Assembly (NCBI GenBank): GCA_026776125.1
Contig: GCA_026776125.1_4343.1
Origin: a phage
Length of the DNA stretch: 44,578 nucleotides
Reading direction: 5' to 3' (one strand)
The notes under the pieces were generated by a model. It had not been told where the DNA came from. It was given only the letters and a program-made list of their open reading frames with translations, and did not search any database. The position numbers and the translations under genes are program-made. Shown piece after piece: positions 8,130 to 41,460 of this stretch (within the stretch, counting starts at the first letter, position 1; every line of letters begins with the position of its first letter).

Positions 8130-8615
8130 TCACGCGGTTTCTCCGTGGTTTTTATGAAATCCGTAAGCAGCTTCCGCGGCTTTACGCGCGGCAACAGCTT
8201 CTCCAAAATCATCAAACTGTCCTAGATGTATTTTTCTTCTGTCGACTTTTATCTCTGCTACCCATTTGTTTCTTCTCTTTTCCCGCCATACACCAAGAGC
8301 GCCGCTAGTATTGTTTACCCCTATCGATGCGTTGCGGCTATTTTCAGTGTTGGTAACTTTCCGCAGGTTGCATATTCGGTTATCGGTTCGAATGTGATTG
8401 ATATGGTCTATCTGTTCCTGTGGGGTAAGTGGGTTATCTGGATTGCATATGTCCCATGCTAACCGATGTGCTAGTTCTAGTTTTCCGTTTATTCGGATAC
8501 GAATGTACCCCTCCCGCGGACAAAAACATCCGGCTTTCTTTCCAACAAAACCCCTACGTTTTGTTTCGACCCATGTGAAAATACCGGTTTCAGGGTCGTA
8601 TGATACCTTGCTCAT
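8130..8615 (-). CDS. HNH homing endonuclease with AP2-like DNA-binding domain
   Basis: HNH-type region (ELAHRLAWDIC...IDHINHIRTDNRICNLR...TNTENSRN) and AP2-like segment (WVAEIKVDRRKIHLGQFDDFGEAVAARKAAEAAYG). Confidence 0.7.
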   Translation of the reverse strand: MSKVSYDPETGIFTWVETKRRGFVGKKAGCFCPREGYIRIRINGKLELAHRLAWDICNPDNPLTPQEQIDHINHIRTDNRICNLRKVTNTENSRNASIGVNNTSGALGVWREKRRNKWVAEIKVDRRKIHLGQFDDFGEAVAARKAAEAAYGFHKNHGETA

Positions 8616-10036
8616 TTCTTACTCCTACGTTTCATATAATTAAGTAGTTCGTCCTGTACAGACCTTTTCTCATCTGTACGCGTGGCGACAACTTCATCAA
8701 GAGTATCTCGGGCTATTATTTGATAAATGAATACTGACCGTTTGTACCCAGATTGCATCTGCCTTACAGGACCTATGCGTTCGATAACCTGCAGATAATG
8801 TTCCAGGTTCCACCCCTGACTCATAAAGGCCATGTGGTGCCCGCCGTGTTGTAGCGACAGCCCGTGGCCCGCGGAGGCTGGGTGTATCAGGAGCATAGGT
8901 ATTTCCCCACGGTTCCACGCTTCCATCTGCTTGTTCCCCCTAGCGCCTTTGGCGAACGCCTGTGCCTGTGGGAATCGCTTAAGGATACGCTCCAGTTCGT
9001 GTTTAAACTGATAGGCTACCAGCAACGGCGCACCCTGCAACTCCTCAACAATCGACTCGAGCGCATCCAGTTTCGTGTCGTGCACTTTCTCCCAGTCTTT
9101 GGTCGCTTCGCCATCAGGCCCAGACACATATACGGCGCCGGAAGCAATCTGCAAACACTTCGACGTCTTCGCTGCCGCGTTAGCCGCTTCAACTTCCCCG
9201 CTCTCCAGTTCCGCGAATAACTTCTCCTCCATATCGATGTACGCCTGACGCGCTTTCTTCGGCAGGTCGATTTCAACCGGCACAATAATCGGCGCTTCAC
9301 AACCGAACCACTCGGCAGGGTCGATGGTCAGGCTGATGTCTTTCATCTTCTGATGAATCTCATTATCTGCACCCGGTCGCGCATGATACTCGCGAGCCAT
9401 AGCCGATTTACCTTTCTGTACCGAGTTAAACCAGCGGTCGGTGAATGCTGTGTACGAAGAGCCGAGGCGCTCGCCAGCGTCGATAAACCAGTTCTGACCC
9501 CACAAGTCTTTGAGGCCGTTTGGTGACGGTGTGCCTGTCAGGTTGATGAAACGCTTAACCTTTCCGAACGCAACCTTGCTGAGCGCCTTTGCCCGCTTGC
9601 TACCACCCGAACGGCTGCGGAACGATTTAAGCTTCGTGCTTTCATCGGCAACGATAACCGTAAAAGGCCAGTCGTCTTTGCCGTAGTAGTCAATTAGCCA
9701 CTCGATAACTTCGTAGTTAGTGCACACCACGTTAGCGTCTGACTCCAGCGCCGCGATGCGGCGCTTCTCCGAACCGGTCGCATCGACGACACGCAGACAA
9801 GGGAAGTTCCATTTCTCTTGTTCTGCAGGCCACGTACCCGACGCAACACGCAACGGGGCGAGGATTAACACGCGGTCCTCTTCTGTAAGCTGCCCGTTGC
9901 GGAACAAGCGGTTTAACACCCACATAGTAGAGGAGGTTTTACCCCCTCCCATGCCACACCAGATATTACAGCGAGGGTGTTGCAGCATGAACGAAGTCAT
10001 GAGCTTCTGGTATTCGCGCCTTTGAAACTTACTCAT
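8612..10036 (-). CDS. SNF2-family (DEAD-like) DNA helicase
   Basis: Walker A GMGGGKT, motif II VIVADEST, SNF2 motif III LTGTPSPN. Confidence 0.75.
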   Translation of the reverse strand: MSKFQRREYQKLMTSFMLQHPRCNIWCGMGGGKTSSTMWVLNRLFRNGQLTEEDRVLILAPLRVASGTWPAEQEKWNFPCLRVVDATGSEKRRIAALESDANVVCTNYEVIEWLIDYYGKDDWPFTVIVADESTKLKSFRSRSGGSKRAKALSKVAFGKVKRFINLTGTPSPNGLKDLWGQNWFIDAGERLGSSYTAFTDRWFNSVQKGKSAMAREYHARPGADNEIHQKMKDISLTIDPAEWFGCEAPIIVPVEIDLPKKARQAYIDMEEKLFAELESGEVEAANAAAKTSKCLQIASGAVYVSGPDGEATKDWEKVHDTKLDALESIVEELQGAPLLVAYQFKHELERILKRFPQAQAFAKGARGNKQMEAWNRGEIPMLLIHPASAGHGLSLQHGGHHMAFMSQGWNLEHYLQVIERIGPVRQMQSGYKRSVFIYQIIARDTLDEVVATRTDEKRSVQDELLNYMKRRSKK

Positions 10037-10737
10037 TTACCGCCCCCATGAATGCCTTTATAAATTCAGCGGCTACTTGCGGGACGATGGCATTGCCGTA
10101 ACCGCGCAATCGTCCCACTCTGGCGGGTATCCCATTAGCCAGCGGGAATGTGCTGGGTTCAACTGGCCGGAACTTTCCATCCTTGCGTATCACTGTCACC
10201 CCGCTGCCTTTGAAGTCGTTCGCTGTCGGTGTAGGCCAATTGGTGTGCGCCAAAGAACAGTCTGTCGCGTTTGTGCGGTGCGCCGACGCTACAAGCTGGG
10301 AGTACGGCAAACCCGACGGCGTAGTCTTCTCCTTCCAGGTGAGTTTGTAAATCGCACATCCACGATTTTGCAATTGCTGGCGCAACCTGTTCCCCAAAGA
10401 GGACTGGAGGGTGGCACTCGCTGATGAGGTCGAGGAACACAGGTGCGAGGTGTCTCGGGTCGAACTGTCCGAGTTGCTTTCCTGCCGCGCTAAACGGTTG
10501 GCAAGGCGGGCTTCCCGTCCAGATAGGCGTATCTTCCGAAACTCCCGCAAGTCTGAGCGCGAGAGGCCAGCCGCCGATACCAGCGAAAAAATGACACTGG
10601 GTGAACCCGTCGAGGTCTTCTGGCTTAACTTCGGTAATGCTTCTTTCATCTACAACTCCAAAAGGTATATGACCCTGTTTTATTAGTTCACGCAGCCACG
10701 CGGCTGCGCCTTTATCCCATTCGTTGTAATAGTTCAT
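10029..10737 (-). CDS. DNA (cytosine-5)-methyltransferase, split across two reading frames (frameshift near 10240-10250)
   Basis: ORF 10159..10737 carries motif I FAGIGG, motif IV PCQPFS, motif VIII-like [10 protein letters not shown]; the +1 frame (ORF 10029..10649) carries the C-terminal motif [19 protein letters not shown]. Confidence 0.6.
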
Positions 10738-10925
10738 TTCGCCACCAGAACTAACTCTTTACGCCCGAATGCCGTAACGTTACCGGTTACATCTTCGATA
10801 ACCAGTTTACCGTTTGACTCGACGAATACCGTATCAACGGCAACAGGGCGGCGGGTCTTAACGTTGAAAATCATGTCGCCAGGTACGATGTCGCGGGCTG
10901 GTTTGCGGTCATATTCGTGTTTCAT
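10734..10925 (-). CDS. Hypothetical protein (63 aa)
   Basis: ORF with ATGA overlap to downstream MTase gene; preceded by class I promoter element. Confidence 0.4.
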   Translation of the reverse strand: MKHEYDRKPARDIVPGDMIFNVKTRRPVAVDTVFVESNGKLVIEDVTGNVTAFGRKELVLVAK

Positions 10926-10955
10926 TTCCCAATTCCTTATATTGTTGGTGTGTGA

Positions 10956-11258
10956 TTAACTATAATAGTTCGCTATTAGGTCGTCAATCTGTTTAAACGA
11001 ACCTACGACAAAAACATTTGCACCACGTCTACGCATCCGCTCATGCTCTCGTAACTGGTGCGGGTCTGGCTTCGTGTTTTCGTCTTTCTTAACCTCGACA
11101 AACCAGATTATGCCGTCGGGGAGAATTACCAGCAGGTCGGGCGCTCCGTTTCTACCCTCATACACTATCTTACGAACGAGGCCACCAATGGCCTCGAATC
11201 GGTCTTTTGCGTATTTCTGTATTTTGCCCTCAGGCGTACGCATCCACACACCCCTCAC
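10956..11258 (-). CDS. VRR-NUC domain nuclease (PD-(D/E)xK fold)
   Basis: GAPDLLVILPDG...IIWFVEVKK pattern typical of VRR-NUC. Confidence 0.6.
   Translation of the reverse strand: MRGVWMRTPEGKIQKYAKDRFEAIGGLVRKIVYEGRNGAPDLLVILPDGIIWFVEVKKDENTKPDPHQLREHERMRRRGANVFVVGSFKQIDDLIANYYS
10959..10987 (-). promoter_or_regulatory. Sigma70-like promoter, class I (TTGACG-N17-TATAGT on minus strand)
   Basis: Hexamers with 17-bp spacer read on minus strand; near-identical copies at 14527 and 17467. Confidence 0.45.
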
Positions 11259-11324
11259 GTTTCGTATGTTCAGTACCGCAGCGCGGACAGATTCGACAGT
11301 CTTCTTCGTAGAACCGGTAAATTT

Positions 11325-11456
11325 TCATTCCAGCACCCACAGATAAATTGCGATGAACATGCCCAATATGGCAACCATCATGCCGTATTGACCCTCGTGA
11401 CAGTAGACACCTGCGGCAAATCCCGCCAGTACCGCGATAATCAGTTTACTTAGCAT
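11325..11456 (-). CDS. Small hydrophobic peptide (43 aa), not in ORF track
   Basis: ATG-initiated ORF translated by hand (MLSKLIIAVLAGFAAGVYCHEGQYGMMVAILGMFIAIYLWVLE); overlaps the 3' end of the polymerase gene. Confidence 0.3.
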   Translation of the reverse strand: MLSKLIIAVLAGFAAGVYCHEGQYGMMVAILGMFIAIYLWVLE

Positions 11457-13617
11457 AGCGTTTTAACTCCTGACCTTCCGCTACAAGAGGGAACCCCTCC
11501 GCCCATTCTGGTAATTCGCACATCAATCGCTCAAGCTCTGCGACATTGTATTCCGGCGTATCTGGAGTTTCGCAGATAATCTCATCGTGGACATGAAGTA
11601 CAATTGGATAACCGTTTGCTTCAACGTTAAGTAGCGCATTAGCCAGCAAGTCACGGCACAGTGCCTGAGTGCAGTTTTCCACCAGTTTACCGGAGTAGGT
11701 GTACTGGAAGCCCCACTGCCTGGTTAACTGATTTTCACCCTGATACTTGATGCGCACGTTAGTAGAAACTTTTCCGTCTTCGTCTGTCTCTTTTGACACG
11801 CTCAACCCGACGCCCGGGTATGACATAACGCGACCTGACGGCAACGTCATGCGCAACCACCAACCAGCGACTTTGTTGCCGTTGTTGTCTGTTTCTACGT
11901 TGCGAGAAAACTTAACCCCGCGAGGGCCAGCGGTGAACTCTTTCCCCGGATTACGGATTGCTGCCATAGCTGCGTCTTCAATATCGCGCCAGAATTGGAC
12001 TATTGCAGGATTAGCTTCCCGGTACATGCGCTTTAAAGCGTCACAGGTGCGCCAAACTTTCTTATCAAGGATATATGAGGGTCGGTCATCTTTTTCACCA
12101 GGACGTGGTGGTCGCTTGGCTTCCTGAATACGCGCCCATTCGTATCCGCGTGCGGTAGCGGCCCAAATATGGTCCGGGAATGTACTGTCTAAAGTGTTAG
12201 TCATGTCATTCAAATCAAGACCTAAGTTTTTAGCAAACGTGACGAAAGCACCGACGCCCCCCGCGTAGCCGAGTCCCAGAACCATTGCTTTGGCTATTTG
12301 TCTTTGGTCCTTTGTTACGGCTTCATATGCAACATTGAACACCGTTGATGCGAGTTTCTTATACACATCAACCCCGTTTACAAATACTTCGATTAAATCG
12401 TCTTCACCCGCCAGCCACGCAAGACCGCGGCCTTCGACGTTAGAGTAATCGGCAACGACAAACTTATGCCCTGCTTCCGGTATGATGCAACTGCGAACCG
12501 TCGATGCCGTTAGCTTGGCTACGTCAAATCGGCGGTGCGCACGGCCCTTAAGTAACGCAGAAATGCCTTTATCCAGTTCATCATCATGATAGTACCCGCG
12601 CGCCAGGTTCTGCGGCTGGAAGCCTTTACCGGCAAATCGTAATGTACGCTTAGCTCCACCGTACTGGATACAACCGCGGCGTCGGTCGTCCGACGAGCGG
12701 CCTAACAGCAGCGGGTTATATTTCGTGGACGCTGTTGACGCGGCCCCGAGGCGCATTTCGATAATCATCCGGGCGTCGTCCGGTAAATCATCATCTGCCA
12801 ACAGGTCATTCAGCGTCGACTTCTGCGCGTTGTGGATTCGATGCGCAGGTGCCAGTTCACGCAGAATCGGAAGGAAGTCTTTACCAGTAAGAGAGCCGCC
12901 ATATTTGCGTTGGGCTTCTTCCTGTAACTGCGCCTTGTGTTTCTCTACGGCTTCAATCGCGGCTTCCGCCAGTGCGACGTCAACCTTAAACCCACGGTCA
13001 TTGATTAACTGGTCCAGTTCCAGTACACGGTCCTCGAACTCGGAGTTACCCCAACGCGGTAGCTTATGGAAGACTTCACGCATAGCAGTAATGTCGCTTA
13101 CGGCGTATTTGATGAACAGCGCCCACTCGTCAGGGTGAGTTTCTGCGGTGTAGCGGCGGATTTTGTAGTTCTTCGGCGCCGGTTTAGAGAAACGCTTAAT
13201 CAGAGCCTTGCCGCGTTTATCTTTCGCGTTGTCTGCAGACACGCCCAGCACTTCGCACAGCGCATCAAGAGAACCCGGCAGCGCGTGACGGAACGCCCAA
13301 ATCATAGTATCAATGGTGTTACTTACCGGAATATCAAAGCCCCAGCAGTGTTTCATGATTAGGCGATCGAAAAGTCCACCGTTGTGCCACACCATCTTGA
13401 TGCGGCTGTTGGGCTTAACAAGGCGGCGCAGTGCGCGGTGCAAATCCCCCGGCATGTCGCTGCCGTCGGTGCAATCCCATACCTGTACAGGCTCGTCATC
13501 AAAAGCATAGGTACAGATGAGCACTTCTGTAGTCGGATGCTCGGCGTAAGCATAGGAACCGACTTTCTTTAAATCGGCTTCGGAGAATGTTTCAAAGTCC
13601 AGGTATAAGTAGCTCAT
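11446..13617 (-). CDS. Family A DNA polymerase with N-terminal 3'-5' exonuclease domain
   Basis: Exo I motif LDFETFS; motif A VADYSNVEGRGLAW; motif B RQIAKAMVLGLGYAGG; motif C HVHDEI. Confidence 0.85.
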   Translation of the reverse strand: MSYLYLDFETFSEADLKKVGSYAYAEHPTTEVLICTYAFDDEPVQVWDCTDGSDMPGDLHRALRRLVKPNSRIKMVWHNGGLFDRLIMKHCWGFDIPVSNTIDTMIWAFRHALPGSLDALCEVLGVSADNAKDKRGKALIKRFSKPAPKNYKIRRYTAETHPDEWALFIKYAVSDITAMREVFHKLPRWGNSEFEDRVLELDQLINDRGFKVDVALAEAAIEAVEKHKAQLQEEAQRKYGGSLTGKDFLPILRELAPAHRIHNAQKSTLNDLLADDDLPDDARMIIEMRLGAASTASTKYNPLLLGRSSDDRRRGCIQYGGAKRTLRFAGKGFQPQNLARGYYHDDELDKGISALLKGRAHRRFDVAKLTASTVRSCIIPEAGHKFVVADYSNVEGRGLAWLAGEDDLIEVFVNGVDVYKKLASTVFNVAYEAVTKDQRQIAKAMVLGLGYAGGVGAFVTFAKNLGLDLNDMTNTLDSTFPDHIWAATARGYEWARIQEAKRPPRPGEKDDRPSYILDKKVWRTCDALKRMYREANPAIVQFWRDIEDAAMAAIRNPGKEFTAGPRGVKFSRNVETDNNGNKVAGWWLRMTLPSGRVMSYPGVGLSVSKETDEDGKVSTNVRIKYQGENQLTRQWGFQYTYSGKLVENCTQALCRDLLANALLNVEANGYPIVLHVHDEIICETPDTPEYNVAELERLMCELPEWAEGFPLVAEGQELKRYAK

Positions 13618-13778
13618 TTCTTTTTCCTTAAATCCAGTGCCTTAGTTTCGCTGAGTCTTATTTTCATACAATCACGGCAAATCCACACATGCCTGTACCC
13701 GGCACGGTACTCATCCGCGTACCACGGAAGTGACTTCATATATCGGTATACGTGCTTACAGAAAAACATCATTTTCGA
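13614..13778 (-). CDS. Small Cys-containing protein (about 54 aa), not in ORF track
   Basis: Hand-translated ORF (MMFFCKHVYRYMKSLPWYADEYRAGYRHVWICRDCMKIRLSE...) with stop overlapping the polymerase ATG (ATGA). Confidence 0.3.
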   Translation of the reverse strand, partial: SKMMFFCKHVYRYMKSLPWYADEYRAGYRHVWICRDCMKIRLSETKALDLRKKK

Positions 13779-13828
13779 CCCTTAGTAAAAAGACCCAATG
13801 AAGGGCCTTAGTTAAATTGATTCAGATA

Positions 13829-14458
13829 TTAGCGGCGGCGACGTTCGCGGCGCGGTGCTTCATCTTCTTCGTCGTCTTCCAGGTCGTCGGTGCTCGCTAC
13901 TACACTGGAGCCGCCGAAGCGTTTACCTTCGCCCATATACTTGATGCCGAGGATGGTAGCGCACAGGTTTTTCCAATCTTTGTGCCACCATAGCTCTACA
14001 GATACGTTTGCGACACATCCGCTATATACCTGCTCGCCTTCTATTTCCTTCCCGTCGATGTTGAAATCAGGCTCTGTTTGTTTTTCACCTTTAGCCGATG
14101 TCATAATCACCGGTTGGCGGTTGTTAGTAGCACGGAAATACAAACCTTCTTCAAAATCCTCAATCGGATTGTCACGCATTGCCAGGTCGCGTACGCAGCA
14201 TTTGTCTGCGTGGTGGTCTACTCCGTAGTTGGCTTTCATCCATTTTTCAGCAGCAGCGGTCCCGATTGCCTCCGTTACAACTTCCAGCGCGGTGTCGTAA
14301 AGCGCGTCGATTTGAGGGTGGTCAGGCTGCATAAGAACCGTAACCTGATATTTGCCCTTAATCAGTTTACCGGTTTTCTTGTCCTCAGAGTCGGCAGCTC
14401 GTTCGAATACGTTAACCCATGCAGTGTTTACTTTACGCAGATTCAGTTTAATACCCAT
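13829..14458 (-). CDS. Hypothetical protein with acidic C-terminal tail; possible ssDNA-binding protein
   Basis: 209-aa ORF ending DDLEDDEEDEAPRRERRRR; position in replication operon; function is inference. Confidence 0.3.
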   Translation of the reverse strand: MGIKLNLRKVNTAWVNVFERAADSEDKKTGKLIKGKYQVTVLMQPDHPQIDALYDTALEVVTEAIGTAAAEKWMKANYGVDHHADKCCVRDLAMRDNPIEDFEEGLYFRATNNRQPVIMTSAKGEKQTEPDFNIDGKEIEGEQVYSGCVANVSVELWWHKDWKNLCATILGIKYMGEGKRFGGSSVVASTDDLEDDEEDEAPRRERRRR

Positions 14459-14526
14459 CGTGATTTCTCGCTTTTCAGTTTATATTTCAAAGTTTACTCC
14501 GGGAAGCTGCCCGGCCAGTGATTAGA

Positions 14527-14555
14527 ACTATAATAGCTAACTATTCAGGTGTCAA
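14527..14555 (-). promoter_or_regulatory. Sigma70-like promoter, class I (TTGACA-N17-TATAGT)
   Basis: Near-identical to elements at 10959 and 17467; about 65 nt upstream of gene start at 14458. Confidence 0.45.
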
Positions 14556-14803
14556 CCCTTCCAGCCAGTTATTTTCTCAACTATCTCGATATATTTGTTA
14601 GGCCATTTCATGCTGTTTATGAATCGAAGCGCCTGTGTCTTCCACGATTTATCACTCAGGATGGCTTCTATGTCGCGAGTTTGCGCTATGCATACCGTAA
14701 TACACATTAAGATAAATGTTGGTAGCGTTAGGGGTAGCATAAGAACCCAGAAAACAATACACGCCACAAAACCGCCAATTACTCTGAACATTTTACGAAT
14801 CAT
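14552..14803 (-). CDS. Small membrane protein
   Basis: Hydrophobic segments (FVACIVFWVLMLPLTLPTFILMCITVCIA); ATG at 14803 forms ATGA overlap with upstream gene. Confidence 0.4.
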   Translation of the reverse strand: MIRKMFRVIGGFVACIVFWVLMLPLTLPTFILMCITVCIAQTRDIEAILSDKSWKTQALRFINSMKWPNKYIEIVEKITGWKG

Positions 14804-16041
14804 TCTAAATCCTCCTCTGTTACCTGATTCCACTCAGGACGCTTGTCGTCTGCCGTTGCAACACATGGCGCGCCGGGCTTACGAGTAATAAAGTCTTTCA
14901 GTTCTTCTTCCGGTATGACTTTAACAGCTTCGGTAGGTGACATGAGCACTTCTTTAGTCAGCTTGTCGCCGTAGAGTTCTGTTACTTTCTCCGCGTCTTT
15001 CCATGCACGATTACCCGGGCGGCCTTCAACCAACTTGTAACCAGGAACTTTCTTACCTGAATGCAACGCGGCCGCCATAGCTTTCTCAACCTTGTCGATG
15101 TGCTGGCGCAACAGCGGCAACTTCTCATACTCAGCTACGAGTTGCTCCGGCGTCAGTTCCAGCACAAAGTCGTCTTCCAGTTCTTCCGCCAGTACAGAAT
15201 TAACCGTCTTTGTACGCGCAGCGCATTGTTCAGAGAACCGGCACCACTGACAACCATCTACCGATGGCTTGAAGTCCGACGCTTTCAGGTTCTTCTTGCC
15301 ACGGAAATACGCATCAAGCGCTAACAGCGCGCGTTTCTGTGCGAACTTAGCGAACAGTTCCAGTCCTTCAACCGAGATGTCCCACTCTGTCGCGCCCCCA
15401 GCGTAAGGCTGGAAGATGACCAGACGAACGGTTGTTATGTTATAACGTCTCTTGAGTCGACGATAAACACCGAGAGCGTAAAGCATAAGCTGCTTGTTTT
15501 CTTTCGCTTCGACGCGATGCCGCCCGGTTTTCAGGTCGCCGATAATGAGCATGTGCTCGTCGGTGTTTGCCAGTTCCTGGACAGCAACGAGGTCAGCGGT
15601 TCCGAACGTCTCAACGCCTTCATACCCCGGATGCAATACCTCAGTAAGATTGACACGCATTTCCAGCTTGGCGTAAGTCGCTACGTCTATAATCGCTTTG
15701 CAGTAGTCGGTGTACTTGCGCACCTGCTCAATCATGTCCGCCGTAATCAGTACCGCGCCTTTCATCGGGCTGATTAGCGCCTTAATCTGACCTTTGCCTT
15801 CATCCAGTACGTAAGCGCCGACTTCACGCTCCAACGGCAACGCAGTGCCGCGTATATAGGCGTTGAGATGGACCTCAGCTATGGTGTGCATGGCGGTCCC
15901 CGTAACGGCAGCTTTACCTGACGTGTTAGGAATATCTTTTTCACAGGCCAGTGATGCACTGCACGTCAGCCACTTCTTAGCACCTGACGGCGACAATAAG
16001 GCGTGCACATCATTATTGCCACCGCGTTCTTTTAGAATCAT
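14800..16041 (-). CDS. PD-(D/E)xK exonuclease, Cas4/RecB-like with Cys cluster
   Basis: IGDLKTG...QLMLYA nuclease-type motifs; cysteines at N-terminus (LTCSASLAC) and C-terminus (CQWCRFSEQC) suggest an Fe-S cluster; ATG at 16041 preferred over GTG at 16056. Confidence 0.6.
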   Translation of the reverse strand: MILKERGGNNDVHALLSPSGAKKWLTCSASLACEKDIPNTSGKAAVTGTAMHTIAEVHLNAYIRGTALPLEREVGAYVLDEGKGQIKALISPMKGAVLITADMIEQVRKYTDYCKAIIDVATYAKLEMRVNLTEVLHPGYEGVETFGTADLVAVQELANTDEHMLIIGDLKTGRHRVEAKENKQLMLYALGVYRRLKRRYNITTVRLVIFQPYAGGATEWDISVEGLELFAKFAQKRALLALDAYFRGKKNLKASDFKPSVDGCQWCRFSEQCAARTKTVNSVLAEELEDDFVLELTPEQLVAEYEKLPLLRQHIDKVEKAMAAALHSGKKVPGYKLVEGRPGNRAWKDAEKVTELYGDKLTKEVLMSPTEAVKVIPEEELKDFITRKPGAPCVATADDKRPEWNQVTEEDLE

Positions 16042-16310
16042 GCTCTGTTCTCCCACTGGTCAATTAAATGTCGTGTCTTATGGTCGCAGTGCATGGCCCA
16101 CCCATACATCGACTCGAAGACATAAAAGTCAGGCTTGGCGAAAGTTGTGCGCTTAATCTGTGACACGTGACGGCCTATATCTTTAGGCCGTGGTACTTTT
16201 CCTAAGTACGCCATCTCTTCCATCTGGTGCGCACCGGACGGAGCACGCAATAGCCATAGCGCCTCTGTGTTATCCCGCCTGTCGACGGCTCGGTAGAGTT
16301 GGTAAATCAT
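16038..16310 (-). CDS. Hypothetical protein (90 aa)
   Basis: ORF in operon with ATGA coupling. Confidence 0.4.
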   Translation of the reverse strand: MIYQLYRAVDRRDNTEALWLLRAPSGAHQMEEMAYLGKVPRPKDIGRHVSQIKRTTFAKPDFYVFESMYGWAMHCDHKTRHLIDQWENRA

Positions 16311-17438: not shown

Positions 17439-17466
17439 ATCTGCCCCTCTCGTTTGGTATGGGCTA

Positions 17467-17495
17467 ACTATAATAGCGAACTATTCACATGTCAA
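17467..17495 (-). promoter_or_regulatory. Sigma70-like promoter, class I (TTGACA-N17-TATAGT)
   Basis: Hexamers and spacer nearly identical to elements at 10959 and 14527. Confidence 0.5.
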
Positions 17496-17559: not shown

Positions 17560-17775
17560 ATGCAACCATCTGAACTAGGCATCCGTGTAGAACAACGCCG
17601 CAAAGAACTCGGCATCTCCCAGCGCCGTTTGGCGGCCCTGACCGGCGTTTCCCAGGGCGCGATTAACCAACTGGCACTTGGAGTAACTCAGGACGTCCGC
17701 CCGGCAACGCTGTTCAAACTGGCGGAAGTTCTGGAAGTAGACGCCAAGTGGCTGGCGTTAGGTGAAGGGGCTTAA
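17560..17775 (+). CDS. XRE-family (Cro/CI-type) helix-turn-helix transcriptional regulator
   Basis: LGISQRRLAALTGVSQGAINQLALG HTH signature; RBS AAGGAG upstream. Confidence 0.75.
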   Translation: MQPSELGIRVEQRRKELGISQRRLAALTGVSQGAINQLALGVTQDVRPATLFKLAEVLEVDAKWLALGEGA

Positions 17776-17792: not shown

Positions 17793-20051
17793 CTATTCCA
17801 AATCCTCCTCTGTCACCACCAGCATCTCATTTGGTTCGTATAGTGTCTTCGGCCTTAATCTATCCCCTATTCTTTCGGGTATACGATATGTTCTCGGTAC
17901 TACTTCGCCGTTAGCATCGCAACCAAGCATTAGTTCTCCATCTTTCAACATTTTATCAAGATGGGTGTTAGTCACAGAGAAGTCACCGGAACGAGCCACT
18001 ATCTGCTGCTGAGTAAAACCGCGACCTGTGTCATCTGACTGTTGCAGGTCTTCCAGTGCCGAAAGTATTGACTCCTTCCTTACTTCATCCCTGCCGCGTT
18101 TAACTTCTTCCTTTACTTTTTGCTTACCTTCTTTCGTCAACCCTTCTTCCCGCTCTTTCTCCTCGTCAGTTTTGAACGGCTCGAAACCCCACGGCATCAA
18201 CACAAGCGCCTTGTGTGGTTCAGGCAGGTCCAGGTTTACGATTGTGCCGTATTCCTCTGTGCTACCCAGGAACTCAACCGCTCGGTATTCTTTAGGCGGC
18301 GGCGCTTCACGGAACTGTACCGACTCCAGCACCATGCCAACCGTCTTCTGCTGAGGCCCGTGCTTGAATTTCGAGTGATATACGTTTATCTGACGGTCGG
18401 TTGCACGTTCGATTGTCAGTTCCACGTCAACACCCGCATACAGCGCCCCACTGCCGCGTGCTTTCTTTCCACCCTTCGGCGTATGGTGGACAACGCCTAC
18501 TGCGGCTTTAGTTGCATCGCGTACTTCTTTCAGAATGGCGATAACTTTACCCATGCCGATTGCTGTTGATGAACTGTTCTCGTCGAACTTATCAATCGTC
18601 AGGGCCAGCGTCTGGTTAAGGGTGTCGAAGGCAACCATGCCAATAGGTTCATCCCCTGCGGTTTCGCGCATCCTGCGGATTAGAGCTGGAATTTTTTTAT
18701 CACCATGCGTAGCGAGTATTTCGCCCGTATCGATGACATGTACATAATCTTTACCTTCCTCGCCATATTTAGCCGCGAGTGCATCAATACGTGTTCGTGT
18801 AGCTGCACCACCCTCGCCGTCAATATAGAAATGGTGGCAACGTTGGGTGTCAGCCCCCGCAAACCGGTACCCGGCGGCGCTCAGGTACATCATCCCCAGC
18901 GTATAGAATGATTTGTACGTGCCGGATTCCCCGACAATATCCCAGATACAATCCGACGGCATGTACCCCTCAACGACGAAATCAGCCTTTACCGGTTCTG
19001 GTAACTCGTCCTCCTCTGAGTCCTCGTCGTCTTCCAGGTCGTCGAGGCTGCATGAGACAGATTCACGCGCCCCCCAACCGATGGCCTCTGCGACTTCACT
19101 GAACGGCAGCCCGGTCGCATCGCACGCGTACTTCCACACCTCTTTCGGTGACAGGCCTTCTGTCGCCGTAATGTCTGTGTCGTGAATCATGGTTACGTTT
19201 GGCGCTTCATACCCCTCGCGCGGGAAGCACAGCAGGAAGTCGTCCGGGCGCGGTGTCGGGTCGCTGTAGTTTTCGGCATGTTCCGGTGTGGCTGGCATCT
19301 TAAGGCCGCGCGGCGTCATGACGCCGCCGTACTCAAACGCCAGTGCTTCAAACGCGTCTGTAAACGCGGTGCGCAGTTCTTCCGGTATCTGGTAATCCGA
19401 TGCGCTGCTAACGTCAACGGCTGGGATGCCTTCCAGTAACTCGTTCGGGTCGATCAGGTCGTTGCGGCGCGACCAGATAACGGTAGCGCCGACCGGCGGC
19501 AGGTACATCGGCTGCGACAGAGTGAACCCGCTGCGGTCCGCACCCATGCCTTTGAAGAAGTGCTCCAGCAACCCATGACGAACACGGATGATGTCACCAC
19601 CCTCCACCGGACGGGCCAGTGGCATTACGACGCGAAAGCGCGGTGACTCATCAGTATGTGATGCCGTGGTATAGAGGCACATGGCCCAGCGGCTGCGCTT
19701 AACCAGGCGCACCGCTTCCTGATACTCTTCCGGTGTTGTGCTGTCGAAATCCAGATAGGCCAGCGACGATTTGCTTACAGACGCATCGCAGCGGTAGAAA
19801 AAACCTTTACGCGCTTGCTTAAAGTCTCCAGTTTCCGGGTCTTTTACGGTGCTGTGCGTTGAGTCGCACGCGGCGGTGATATAACCGGGCGCGGTCTTAG
19901 GGTTAATCCCGTCGCGAACGGCATCGAGCGGCTGGATTAACTCTTTCAGGTCGTCCAGTGTTGCCGTGTGTGCGGTTCTGACATTTATATCCTTTTTTCC
20001 CGCCCGCGCGTTGCGGCGTGACCACGAGTAGGATAAAATTACATCGGACAT
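17793..20051 (-). CDS. Primase-helicase: N-terminal primase-polymerase-like region plus RecA/DnaB-like ATPase
   Basis: LAYLDFDS (DxD-type motif) in N-terminal half; Walker A GESGTYKSF and Walker B-like VGVVHHTPKGG in C-terminal half. Confidence 0.6.
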   Translation of the reverse strand: MSDVILSYSWSRRNARAGKKDINVRTAHTATLDDLKELIQPLDAVRDGINPKTAPGYITAACDSTHSTVKDPETGDFKQARKGFFYRCDASVSKSSLAYLDFDSTTPEEYQEAVRLVKRSRWAMCLYTTASHTDESPRFRVVMPLARPVEGGDIIRVRHGLLEHFFKGMGADRSGFTLSQPMYLPPVGATVIWSRRNDLIDPNELLEGIPAVDVSSASDYQIPEELRTAFTDAFEALAFEYGGVMTPRGLKMPATPEHAENYSDPTPRPDDFLLCFPREGYEAPNVTMIHDTDITATEGLSPKEVWKYACDATGLPFSEVAEAIGWGARESVSCSLDDLEDDEDSEEDELPEPVKADFVVEGYMPSDCIWDIVGESGTYKSFYTLGMMYLSAAGYRFAGADTQRCHHFYIDGEGGAATRTRIDALAAKYGEEGKDYVHVIDTGEILATHGDKKIPALIRRMRETAGDEPIGMVAFDTLNQTLALTIDKFDENSSSTAIGMGKVIAILKEVRDATKAAVGVVHHTPKGGKKARGSGALYAGVDVELTIERATDRQINVYHSKFKHGPQQKTVGMVLESVQFREAPPPKEYRAVEFLGSTEEYGTIVNLDLPEPHKALVLMPWGFEPFKTDEEKEREEGLTKEGKQKVKEEVKRGRDEVRKESILSALEDLQQSDDTGRGFTQQQIVARSGDFSVTNTHLDKMLKDGELMLGCDANGEVVPRTYRIPERIGDRLRPKTLYEPNEMLVVTEEDLE

Positions 20052-38860: not shown

Positions 38861-38886
38861 AAGGCCCCTTTCGGGGCCTTTTTCTT
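38861..38886. terminator. Bidirectional hairpin terminator (aaggcccc-tttc-ggggcctt + TTTTCTT)
   Basis: 8-bp stem between convergent major tail gene and minus-strand cassette. Confidence 0.65.
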
Positions 38887-39439
38887 ACAAACCTAATTTT
38901 AAAGCAATGTCTATAACGTTCGATTTAACGTCACCCGGTATGATGTAGGTGTCGTAATCTTTTACACCACTAACATCGTACAGATAGCCACGGCTATCGC
39001 AGATGAACGTATAGCCGTCACGATGGAGGCGGACGATTCGCACGTCATGCCCCGCGGCGACGATAGGGGCAACTTCACTGGCGAATCCACCGTCGGACAC
39101 TACAAAAACTTCGTCGCCGTCAGGCAAGTTTTCAGCAAGATACTTACCGAAATAATCATCGCCGAATACCGGTTTAATGAATTGCTCAGAAATGGCAATC
39201 ATTAACCGGCGGCGGGACAACCCATTAAGAAAACCCTCGGGTTTTTCTTTCCGCGCCCGGTCGTCGTAGCCGTCGAGAAATTCGTGGTAAGCATCCTGGC
39301 CTAACGCTGCCAAAGCAATATTGAACATTGGGTTCTTGAAACTGGTAGTTCCTTTCGCAAAGCCCATTTCTACCAGCGCCATAGCAAGCGTGTCTTTCCC
39401 GCAACCCGCAGGGCCATTAAGAATAATTACCTTAGCCAT
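38885..39439 (-). CDS. P-loop nucleotide kinase, dNMP-kinase-like
   Basis: Walker A GPAGCGKDT at N-terminus; overall resemblance to phage deoxynucleoside monophosphate kinases (by eye, unverified). Confidence 0.55.
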   Translation of the reverse strand: MAKVIILNGPAGCGKDTLAMALVEMGFAKGTTSFKNPMFNIALAALGQDAYHEFLDGYDDRARKEKPEGFLNGLSRRRLMIAISEQFIKPVFGDDYFGKYLAENLPDGDEVFVVSDGGFASEVAPIVAAGHDVRIVRLHRDGYTFICDSRGYLYDVSGVKDYDTYIIPGDVKSNVIDIALKLGL

Positions 39440-39927
39440 TATTTATTGCTCCCGTGTGGTTTTAAGTGTGTAGAGTTCCCGTTACAGTCGTATTCGGTAA
39501 CTGCGTGTGCGGTTATGCCGAGGTCACGGAAATGCTTTATTACCGCTGGGGAGTCGTCGAACGCACACAAGATTCTTTCCAGTCCGAAAGCACGCAACAC
39601 CTCTTCTTTAATTACGATGTCTTTTCTGTTGTCGTGTTTGCTGCGCATGATTAGCGTGTCAAACCTAACGTTATTCTCTCGTAACCATTCGCGAGTCTCC
39701 TCCTCAGCGTCATCACTTCGCCCGGTAAGGATAATTATAGTAAGTCCGGAATGCCACAGTACGCTACACAAATGGATATTGTCGTATATCGGAGCGTCAT
39801 CTTTGCAGGCCATGTTAAATGGCTTCCACGCCCACGTTTCTCCGTAGTTATCTTTTGGTAACAGGTGTAAGCGATGGGTACCGTCGGCCAATGTCCCGTC
39901 TAAATCGAAAATTACAATATCTTTCAT
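39439..39927 (-). CDS. HAD-superfamily phosphatase, resembling the 3'-phosphatase domain of polynucleotide kinase-phosphatase
   Basis: HAD motif I IFDLDGTLA at N-terminus; further motifs TGR and RKDIVIKEEVL...FDDSP. Confidence 0.55.
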   Translation of the reverse strand: MKDIVIFDLDGTLADGTHRLHLLPKDNYGETWAWKPFNMACKDDAPIYDNIHLCSVLWHSGLTIIILTGRSDDAEEETREWLRENNVRFDTLIMRSKHDNRKDIVIKEEVLRAFGLERILCAFDDSPAVIKHFRDLGITAHAVTEYDCNGNSTHLKPHGSNK

Positions 39928-41054
39928 CCCAGCATCTCCGGTGAAATAGTTAAACGTGCGACCTCGCCATATTCGGCGCTATAAGTAATTACATTTGCAC
40001 TGCGGCCCGACATCCATCCGCCGTGAGAGGCGTAGGCGTCTTTAGCCGCTAAGGTGCGGTGTTGCTCAACAATCATGTTACGGCTTTCTACAATCTTCTG
40101 GTGGTGCAGATGGCCTACGTGGGCGTAGCTGTAAACACTCTCGCCGAACGCTTTACGGAACTTGGCAATCATAACCGGTTCGATAGCGTCGAATCGTGCT
40201 TTATGCCCGTGATGGAAGAACAGCGTCGTTTTGCCGTGTTGCACCATCTTGTAAACATCCGGCGACGTATCAACAATCACTCGGCTGTCGTTTGAGTATA
40301 AAACCGTGAACATTTCGGCAAGCCATACGGAGCCAACAGGGTCGTGGTTACCTTGAACGATTAAAAGTTTTACTGTGTGATGCTTAACCAGCGCCATATC
40401 AACAACACGGCGGACCATACGAATCATGTAACGTACCAGTTTCTGATAGCGAGTATCCGCATCTAATACATGGCGCGACTCGGGGGTAACGGCATCAAGA
40501 CTATCGAAGTGTGCGAAGTCCCCAAGCAGGTTAATAACTCCTGTTCCTGCATCCGGTGCTTTCTGAAACGCCGCGTCGAACCACCGAGAGAACAGGTCTT
40601 CTGCAATCTTCATGTCCCAGTCGTCGCCGCTCTCATCGGCCCATGCCAGCATACCGAGATGGAAATCAGATACAGTGTAAAGATTGAGTAGCTTGTCGTC
40701 ACGTTTGGCGCGCGCCGCTTTAACAGGCGCAACGGGCGTAATCTCTGACTTCATGCCCTCTATTACGGCTTTCATCAATTCAACCTGACGTTCGGCGTCG
40801 GTATCAGTCTTAACCCATTGCAACTTAGTGTTGCCGAACTCGTCCACAAGTGACGACGTTCCTTTAATCTTGTAGCCGTCTGGCACAAGGTGGCTAACGT
40901 CGCGCCCGTGGCCCACGCCTTTCTTAGCCAGCTTCGCTTTACGGATACGAATTACGCGGTCTGAGATGCCGTATTTACGGGCGATATCTACATTCTTCAT
41001 ACCGGCGTTCAATTCTTCCTGCAACTGTTCGTCGGTTATTTTCTTCCGGGCCAT
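39924..41054 (-). CDS. Calcineurin-like metallophosphoesterase with N-terminal HTH domain
   Basis: HTH-like N-terminus (VDIARKYGISDRVIRIRK); phosphoesterase motifs SDFHLG, GDFAHFD, GNHD, HHGH, GHLHH (Mre11/SbcD-like pattern). Confidence 0.55.
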   Translation of the reverse strand: MARKKITDEQLQEELNAGMKNVDIARKYGISDRVIRIRKAKLAKKGVGHGRDVSHLVPDGYKIKGTSSLVDEFGNTKLQWVKTDTDAERQVELMKAVIEGMKSEITPVAPVKAARAKRDDKLLNLYTVSDFHLGMLAWADESGDDWDMKIAEDLFSRWFDAAFQKAPDAGTGVINLLGDFAHFDSLDAVTPESRHVLDADTRYQKLVRYMIRMVRRVVDMALVKHHTVKLLIVQGNHDPVGSVWLAEMFTVLYSNDSRVIVDTSPDVYKMVQHGKTTLFFHHGHKARFDAIEPVMIAKFRKAFGESVYSYAHVGHLHHQKIVESRNMIVEQHRTLAAKDAYASHGGWMSGRSANVITYSAEYGEVARLTISPEMLG

Positions 41055-41091
41055 GTTTATTCCTCGTGCTTAGGATTTGTCCTATACTAGC

Positions 41092-41283
41092 TCACTTCTC
41101 TTTGACATTCGAGTTGCAAGCCCAGATTAAAATAAATACCCACGGCAGCAGAACCCATCCAAGAAACAGATTAGCCATGAATATCGCTAATTTCGCTTTA
41201 TGGTCGCGCATATGCGCCACGAGAAATGGAGTAAAATAAACTAAAACGATAATGATTAAGAAGAACATAGTAATACCCGTCAT
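41092..41283 (-). CDS. Small membrane protein (63 aa)
   Basis: ATG at 41283 with RBS AGGAG; two hydrophobic helices (ITMFFLIIIVLVYFTPFLV and FLGWVLLPWVFILIWA); ORF-track entry 41092..41421 starts too far upstream. Confidence 0.45.
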   Translation of the reverse strand: MTGITMFFLIIIVLVYFTPFLVAHMRDHKAKLAIFMANLFLGWVLLPWVFILIWACNSNVKEK

Positions 41284-41324
41284 GGTGTAGCTCCTGTTTG
41301 GGATAACATCGTTGGTGTAAGTGA

Positions 41325-41353
41325 ATAGTACACTATTATATTGGGGTGTGCAA
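41325..41353 (-). promoter_or_regulatory. Promoter-like element, class II (TTGCAC-N17-TACTAT on minus strand)
   Basis: Near-identical to 32092 copy; about 40 nt upstream of 41283 start. Confidence 0.5.
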
Positions 41354-41460
41354 GTAATGTGATAGAATAATTTTGCGCCTAGTGTCGCACACGAAAAGCG
41401 GGTGGTTCCCGTCTGGCGCATTAACCTTAACCCGTAACCTCTTAACCAAAGGATTAAAGA

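Follow-up and report, generated by a model that had tools for sequence, protein, structure and literature searches.

The phage contig GCA_026776125.1_4343.1 (GenBank assembly GCA_026776125.1; 44,578 nucleotides (nt), hereafter "the window") carries on its minus strand a DNA replication and recombination module. Three of its proteins are our main concern: a DUF2800 nuclease with PD-(D/E)XK motifs (14800-16041, 413 amino acids (aa), hereafter "the exonuclease"), a DUF2815 binding protein for single-stranded DNA (ssDNA), or SSB, of the Enc34 ORF6 and T7 gp2.5 type (13829-14458, 209 aa), and a small VRR-NUC nuclease (10956-11243, 95 aa). A family A DNA polymerase (PolA; 11446-13617, 723 aa) lies between the last two, and a SNF2-family helicase (8612-10036, 474 aa) is the last conserved member. 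With a probability of about 70%, we interpret these genes as the standard replication-recombination set of Guernseyvirinae-type siphophages, found also in many unrelated phages, on the basis of protein families and fold, the invariance of catalytic residues and cysteines, conserved gene order, and a promoter-like element present in three copies. The association of exonuclease, SSB, PolA, and VRR-NUC is an ordinary feature already described in the literature: a "duf2800-gp2.5-polA module" without a separate ssb gene alongside is known from phages of both Gram-positive and Gram-negative hosts (PMC8093625), and this gene order is present in the window; it has been described as the Enc34 replication module too.

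A nucleotide search with the 5.2-kb region encompassing most of the module (10900-16100) matched 447 phage records, the best of them being the Escherichia coli Kagunavirus phages vB_Ec_DUEC01 (DUEC01), EF2-1, and the BASEL phages Bas72-76, with 86-91% nucleotide identity over 90-95% of its length. These relatives annotate the genes as exonuclease or PD-(D/E)XK nuclease, ssDNA binding (and annealing) protein, DNA polymerase I, and VRR-NUC or Holliday junction resolvase; together, matches and annotations identify the source as the genome of a Guernseyvirinae-type siphophage. The module proteins of the window are 83-99% identical to those of published phages, and the discovery value of the module, known as it is, is small. 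The original prediction, made from the sequence alone, had proposed a DNA-end processing module with two nucleases and a 209-aa protein set beside a SNF2 helicase and a possible SSB. All three open reading frames (ORFs) exist on the minus strand, at the predicted positions or no more than 15 nt from them, and Pfam and PHROG matches confirm both the SNF2 helicase (SNF2-rel_dom, 7.3e-13; phrog_62, 6e-166) and the SSB in the replication region, together with PolA (DNA_pol_A, 1.9e-22; DNA_pol_A_exo1, 3e-4; phrog_17, 2.2e-136).

The DUF2800 nuclease and its conserved cysteines

The exonuclease matches the Pfam DUF2800 family (PF10926) end to end, its residues 18-407 covering profile positions 1-368 of 368 (2.2e-68, 231.6 bits for a cutoff of 21), and it also matches PDDEXK_1 (2.2e-09) and phrog_69, labeled "exonuclease" (2e-122), in agreement with the PD-(D/E)xK exonuclease first proposed for 14800-16041. 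Its ATG overlaps the stop codon of the upstream gene in an ATGA, and relatives annotate an identical 1242-nt coding sequence (CDS). Most phage records use the 413-aa start; one E. coli third-party annotation (TPA) protein entry starts later (402 aa).

Since the 120 listed database homologues are all >95% identical, we assessed conservation on representatives of 50%-identity clusters, among which the exonuclease had 11,753 matches at E ≤ 1e-3, using an alignment of the query and 145 full-length representatives 31-61% identical (n = 146). A second, independent set comprised 74 distinct sequences, namely the query and homologues from IMG/VR contigs. Four cysteines, C27, C264, C267, and C273, are invariant in both (146/146 and 74/74), defining the pattern C-X(236)-C-X2-C-X5-C, whereas the other three (C33, C114, and C393) occur in only 1-7% of the n = 146 alignment. 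In Cas4-family proteins, as in the nuclease domains of AddAB and AdnAB, one N-terminal and three C-terminal cysteines so arranged coordinate the iron-sulfur (Fe-S) cluster (PMC12094033). The catalytic residues of the D, DxK, and QxxxY motifs (D150, D169-L-K171, Q184, and Y188), as well as E127, are likewise invariant in the two sets (146/146 and 74/74 for E127, D150, D169, K171, Q184, and Y188). The N- and C-terminal cysteines noticed in the original prediction are therefore real, with four of the seven invariant across the family; it had stated that a lack of nuclease-family matches or of cysteine conservation would speak against it, and neither occurred.

A single-sequence search against the Protein Data Bank (PDB) sequences gave nothing useful for the exonuclease, and a profile built from diverse homologues was required. 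The profile of 95 DUF2800 members retrieved the nuclease domain of AdnA (6PPU, E = 4.2e-05) and the Argonaute-associated Cas4-family nuclease ACE1 (9IAC, 4.6e-04; 9IAB, 0.0099). In these alignments the N-terminal "SPS...W..CP" of DUF2800 pairs with "SPS...LTDCP" of AdnA, and "CrwCkakakC" pairs with "CANCPVRSSC" of AdnA and "CRYCPFTSIC" of ACE1. AdnA has an Fe-S cluster subdomain (PMC8789073), and in ACE1 four conserved cysteines hold a Fe4S4 cluster (PMC12094033). An AlphaFold2 model based on the 95-sequence alignment (predicted local distance difference test (pLDDT) 93.3; predicted template modeling score (pTM) 0.85) matches Fe-S nucleases in fold, the closest structures being AdnA and Dna2 and not Cas4. 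From profile and model, which between them match the Fe-S nucleases AdnA, Dna2, ACE1, and Cas4, the DUF2800 protein belongs to the RecB-family nucleases of the RecB/AdnA/Cas4-like "iron-staple" type, with C27, C264, C267, and C273 as putative Fe-S ligands; a cluster bound by these cysteines probably staples its N- and C-terminal segments to each other, as in AddB, AdnA, Dna2, and Cas4.

Compared with the iron-staple nuclease domains of AdnA, AddB, Dna2, Cas4, ACE1, and EXO5, the exonuclease stands alone, without a helicase motor, and has an added, conserved C-terminal domain of ~120 aa. This domain (residues ~295-413) equals the nuclease core in conservation (median identity 35%, against 34% for the core), contains the near-invariant residues K336, R345, W347, D399, and R401, and is modeled confidently (pLDDT mostly >90). 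In homologues from Salmonella Jerseyvirus phages, the stretch matching all 413 residues of the query takes up about 1390-1425 nt, indicating an insertion of roughly 50-60 aa, and a 542-aa homologue in phage fmb-p1 is named "putative intein containing helicase".

A gp2.5-type protein as candidate annealing protein

The 209-aa protein belongs to the Pfam family Enc34_ssDNA-bd (PF10991, formerly DUF2815; 1.8e-11, 44.5 bits for a cutoff of 26) and matches phrog_112, [quoted passage not shown] (2.4e-32). As a single sequence it retrieved nothing useful from the PDB; a profile built from 46 homologues encoded directly after DUF2800 in related loci matched the DUF2815 structural-genomics entries 4JG2 (5.8e-43) and 4KLK (4.4e-37) and Enc34 ORF6 (5ODJ, 6.3e-34). 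Enc34 ORF6 is an OB-fold SSB, a structural homologue of T7 gp2.5 with an unstructured acidic C-terminus, and it binds ssDNA (PMC5686142). Pairwise identity between the two proteins is only ~18%. W157 of the SSB aligns with the ssDNA-stacking W150 of Enc34, in a column with W, F, or Y in 46/46 sequences, and K36 aligns with the cleft lysine K46, in a column with K or R in 34/46. Enc34 N154 and R112 are not conserved in the SSB, which has D161 and T111 at these positions.

The SSB shares an acidic C-terminal segment with Enc34 ORF6 and the other DUF2815 SSBs (5ODJ/5ODK/5ODL, 4JG2, and 4KLK), all in the same Pfam family: ten of its last 20 residues are D or E, followed by an RRERRRR end. T7 gp2.5 and most homologues, by contrast, end in a hydrophobic or aromatic residue, whereas the SSB ends basic after the acidic run. 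The acidic tail followed by a strongly basic end, …DDLEDDEEDEAPRRERRRR (13829-13903 in the window), recurs in closer relatives; in most other homologues the acidic run closes the protein, its final residue being hydrophobic, and members of a third group finish with …INPITGLPM.

The original prediction had recognized no annealing protein and had put forward this acidic-tail protein as a candidate. RecT/Redbeta, Erf, Rad52/Sak, Sak3, and Sak4 have no match among the submitted minus-strand ORFs between 8130 and 20533 in Pfam and PHROG scans, nor is a classical annealing protein annotated in Bas74. DUF2815 is treated as part of the Gp2.5 family among single-strand annealing proteins and, as in the window, its members adjoin a DUF2800 nuclease and PolA with no other ssb gene (PMC8093625). 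This family assignment, together with the lack of matches to classical annealing families, makes the 209-aa protein the right candidate, as had been proposed.

The VRR-NUC protein and its crystallized orthologue

Although the Pfam VRR_NUC model (PF08774) scores below its cutoff (18.2 vs 23.8 bits), the small nuclease matches phrog_93 (1e-32), phrog_5702 "Holliday junction resolvase" (5e-20), and the crystallized VRR-NUC proteins 4QBN (1.2e-50) and 4QBO (1.1e-08). Its identity with 4QBN chain A (saNUC) reaches 83% (76/92, gap-free), with sixteen substitutions and the same E...PD...ExK...Q active site, and the catalytic residues E5, P35-D36, E50 and K52 (of E50-V-K52), and Q63 are each shared by 64-67 of 67 homologues. 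The family assignment of the original prediction thus stands, but probably not its start codon: an ORF of 100 aa does begin with the GTG at 11258, yet the ATG at 11243 is the likelier start because a GAGGGG lies 7 nt upstream, DUEC01 annotates 288 nt, and the crystallized orthologue aligns from there.

saNUC comes from the Salmonella Enteritidis typing phage 3 (PMC4103454), a Jerseyvirus of the same subfamily (PMC11990801). Together with stNUC and psNUC, it has an Hjc-like fold, forms dimers in solution, and makes symmetric cuts in four-way junctions (PMC4103454). By orthology, the protein of the window is expected to adopt an Hjc-like fold, to form homodimers, and to cut four-way junctions symmetrically. 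The label "DNA-end processing" is therefore inappropriate for the VRR-NUC, whose 83% identity to a dimeric, junction-cleaving enzyme points to a junction or branch resolvase and not to an end processor. The recombination pathway also suggested in the original prediction would fit such a predicted activity.

Conservation of the module across phages

A 13-sequence DUF2800 alignment was used to fetch 79 IMG/VR loci, with exonucleases from 97% down to 29% identical, and the ORFs of these loci were searched with iterated profiles of the window proteins. The SSB was found in 76 loci, PolA in 71, VRR-NUC in 66, and SNF2 in 62, with SSB and PolA downstream of the exonuclease on the same strand. The full order exonuclease-SSB-PolA-VRR-NUC-SNF2 on one strand occurs in 55/79 loci, many of the incomplete ones being short or truncated contigs; wherever all five genes are present, their order is nearly always identical. 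SNF2 lies downstream of VRR-NUC in 60 of the 79 loci and upstream in 2 more, and the gap between exonuclease and SSB has a median of only 16 nt.

A tblastn search detected exonuclease homologues in 1513 of 50,697 phage records (~3%), from phages of Salmonella, Escherichia, Streptococcus, Staphylococcus, Bacteroides, Achromobacter, Paenibacillus, Corynebacterium, and others. Some E. coli siphophages of ~44.6 kb carry homologues ~47% identical.

Proposed mode of action and alternative functions

The adjacency of a nuclease and a gp2.5-type SSB suggests an exonuclease/annealase pair, like T7 gp6 with gp2.5 or lambda Exo with Beta. By analogy with AdnA and ACE1 (PMC12094033), the Fe-S-stapled nuclease would thread and cut 5' or single-stranded tails, leaving 3' single strands. 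The SSB would then coat the exposed strands and, by analogy with gp2.5, probably anneal complementary ones. Through annealing, the genome would be circularized or concatenated and recombination-dependent synthesis primed, with PolA and the primase-helicase encoded upstream copying the DNA. The VRR-NUC dimer would cut four-way junctions and further branched structures, clearing concatemers for packaging, and the SNF2 ATPase probably remodels forks or branches. Between the two pathways named in the original prediction, recombination-dependent replication and host-DNA degradation, we infer the former.

Several observations weigh against this scheme. Neither an Fe-S cluster nor a 5'-3' polarity is known from experiment for any DUF2800 protein. 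Strand annealing is established for T7 gp2.5 but not for any DUF2815 protein, Enc34 ORF6 having been shown only to bind ssDNA. The C-terminal domain of the exonuclease (~295-413) has no structural match in the PDB, which leaves part of the protein unexplained. In vitro, saNUC is weak and poorly structure-selective (PMC4103454). Finally, the Bas14 nuclease B14T (Bas14_0045, from the Dhillonvirus phage TheodorHerzl), a DUF2800 protein that triggers retron type IX and cleaves the multicopy single-stranded DNA (msDNA) at the base of its stem-loop in a DxK-dependent manner, makes endonucleolytic cuts instead of resecting processively (bioRxiv 10.64898/2026.07.14.737667). B14T is the only member of the family with biochemistry, and its mode of cutting calls for caution before assuming a simple processive exonuclease. 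It shares with the window exonuclease the Pfam family and the DxK motif (D177/K179 in B14T, D169/K171 in the window), but its C-terminal region is disordered according to the preprint (bioRxiv 10.64898/2026.07.14.737667), in contrast with the confidently modeled one described above. On the supporting side, DNA cleavage has been demonstrated for B14T, and escaper phages in which it is truncated are viable (same preprint), so that an accessory role in recombination fits better than an essential replicative one.

A speculative and rather doubtful idea is that the C-terminal domain serves as an adaptor docking the Fe-S nuclease onto the gp2.5-type SSB or the polymerase, with the Arg-rich end of the SSB acting as a self-masking switch. 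If true, the module would contain its own specific, helicase-free resection-annealing machine.

The role of the nuclease can also be read differently. It might mainly be a Dna2-like flap or primer-removal enzyme that trims the 5' flaps of the lagging strand, recombination being secondary. This is plausible because PolA lacks a 5' nuclease domain: the Pfam scan of its 723 aa detected polymerase and N-terminal 3'-5' exonuclease-like regions only. Likewise, the annotation of the close relative Bas74 lists neither a FEN nor an RNase H gene, and the exonuclease gene is tightly placed in the replication block. Nevertheless, the viability of Bas14 phages with a truncated DUF2800 gene would be unexpected for an essential step, unless host Pol I compensates, and the close spacing of exonuclease and SSB genes equally suits an exonuclease/annealase pair; we consider flap removal as main function unlikely.

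Degradation of host DNA by both nucleases, for nucleotides and host shutdown as by T7 gp3 and gp6, appears very unlikely as their main function. The combination of an exonuclease-type nuclease with a junction or branch endonuclease does parallel T7 gp6 and gp3, saNUC has non-specific nuclease activity at high concentration (PMC4103454), and the Bas14 nuclease was expressed alone in toxicity assays (bioRxiv 10.64898/2026.07.14.737667). In those assays, however, toxicity required the presence of the retron (same preprint), and many temperate phages of Streptococcus and Staphylococcus, as well as prophage-like contigs, also carry the module, whose conserved role is unlikely to be wholesale destruction of host DNA there.

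That the exonuclease is a true Cas4 captured by the phage and interfering with CRISPR spacer acquisition is hardly credible and was rejected, since the Cas4 Pfam model (PF01930) has no match at E ≤ 0.01 in a scan that returned only DUF2800 and PDDEXK_1, the nearest structures are those of AdnA and Dna2, the protein has an extra 120-aa C-terminal domain, its neighbors, including the conserved ones, are replication genes with neither cas genes nor a CRISPR array nearby, and the annotation of the complete Bas74 genome, a close relative, lists no cas gene. The "Cas4-like" exonuclease of the original prediction accordingly holds for the cofactor motif and the fold, but not for the family.

Resection, annealing, and junction resolution in recombination-dependent replication thus remain our preferred reading. 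Solved structures exist in the families of two of the three proteins (exonuclease, SSB, and VRR-NUC), the DUF2800 family is newly linked to retron defense through one member that acts as a trigger, and the Kagunavirus phages, as small and tractable phages of E. coli, offer a convenient system for questions about the Fe-S cluster, resection, and annealing.

Promoter-like elements and regulation

A 30-nt element, TTGAC(A/G)-N4-AATAG-N4-CTATTATAGTT, resembles a sigma-70 promoter of near-consensus sequence whose spacer contains a palindrome. It occurs exactly three times in the whole window, always on the minus strand (0 expected by chance), and is kept at syntenic sites in relatives. The first copy (17466-17495) precedes the run of genes whose last member is the exonuclease and faces a divergent helix-turn-helix (HTH) gene. 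The second (14526-14555), TTGACA-N4-AATAG-N4-CTATT-ATAGTT, agrees with the sigma-70 consensus at 11/12 positions and precedes SSB, PolA, and VRR-NUC. The third (10958-10987), overlapping the VRR-NUC gene at its 3' end, is upstream of genes for a 63-aa protein, a methyltransferase, and the SNF2 helicase. Promoter-like sites overall are no commoner in the window than in shuffled sequence (12 vs 11.3), so we treat only the three sites with the 30-nt motif as meaningful.

Given these three copies, what the original prediction called a replication operon is probably a set of three co-regulated units. The element is probably an operator for a phage regulator, and the HTH protein, encoded divergently on the plus strand (17560-17775), is possibly that regulator.

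Neighboring genes

Upstream of the module, the minus strand encodes a 752-aa replicative primase-helicase (17793-20051; phrog_3228, 4.9e-297; Pfam AAA_25, 1.1e-19). NCBIfam has no model for this protein, the exonuclease, the SSB, or the VRR-NUC. Several small minus-strand genes occupy the intervals of the module. A predicted membrane protein of 83 aa (14552-14803), whose start at the ATG at 14803 overlaps the exonuclease stop in an ATGA, has no family match in Pfam or PHROG scans, and relatives annotate a 204-nt hypothetical gene in its place. Between SSB and PolA, a 52-aa ORF (13614-13772) overlaps the PolA start by 4 nt; it has a weak match to phrog_7696 (6e-4) and is hypothetical in relatives. 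Two tiny ORFs with ATGA overlaps follow PolA, one for a 43-aa hydrophobic peptide (11325-11456), overlapping the PolA stop in the interval before VRR-NUC, and one for a 32-aa peptide with a CxxCxxC…C pattern (11230-11328), overlapping the VRR-NUC start; small hypothetical genes are annotated here in relatives.

The C5-cytosine methyltransferase gene, also on the minus strand, is broken up into two ORFs that overlap but use different frames (10159-10737 and 10029-10649). Relative to the 825-nt CDS of K1ind1, the window lacks 116 nt in the variable middle of the gene, and compared with ZCEC5, 215 aligned nt are missing. An imperfect direct repeat (GGAYGGRAAGG / GGATGGAAA) flanks the missing piece in relatives, which makes the loss of this piece look like a slipped deletion inactivating the methyltransferase. 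The methyltransferase motifs lie in different frames also in relatives, even where the annotation gives one long ORF. One frame holds motifs I-VIII together with motif X (GNAIVPQ), motif IX, "LMGYP(P/Q)EWDD", is in another frame in both the window (10029-10737) and Bas76 (L001 5041-5838), and "NWPTPTAND(F/Y)KGSG" lies off the frame of motifs I-VIII in the window. In K1ind1 (L082 301-1125) a nested ORF in an alternative frame is annotated as FDH14_gp33, which we infer to carry both of these sequences. The scatter of frames could reflect compensating frameshifts in a decaying gene, or recoding.

After the SNF2 gene, the minus strand encodes an HNH endonuclease with an AP2-like domain (8130-8615; PF13392, 5.7e-11; phrog_99, 8.9e-64). 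Bas76 and DUEC01 have only small hypothetical ORFs at this position, and Bas74 has an "endonuclease VII" adjoining PolA; these differences indicate that mobile nuclease genes come and go within the module.

A second nuclease and end-healing islet lies inside the tail-gene block (38885-41421, minus strand). Its products are a calcineurin-like metallophosphoesterase of 376 aa (phrog_704, "DNA repair exonuclease", 5.9e-162), a polynucleotide-kinase-type HAD phosphatase of 162 aa (PF25109, 3.3e-20), a P-loop kinase of 184 aa (phrog_139, 3e-44), and a superinfection-immunity protein. Kinase and phosphatase together resemble a T4 Pnkp split in two, and no ligase gene lies near them; Bas74 has the phosphoesterase without this pair.

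Comparison with known systems

The closest counterparts of the module are the replication modules of Kagunavirus and Jerseyvirus phages (DUEC01, SonjaBuckley_Bas74, VerenaMeyer_Bas76, K1ind1, and the Salmonella phage SETP3), in which gene set and order are identical to those of the window; the exonucleases of Bas74 and the window are 99.5% identical. The differences from these published modules concern accessory content only: the endonuclease VII gene adjoining PolA in Bas74 is missing from the window, whereas the window has the HNH gene after the SNF2 gene and the 116-nt deletion in the methyltransferase. More broadly, the module set parallels gp4, gp5, gp2.5, gp6, and gp3 of T7.

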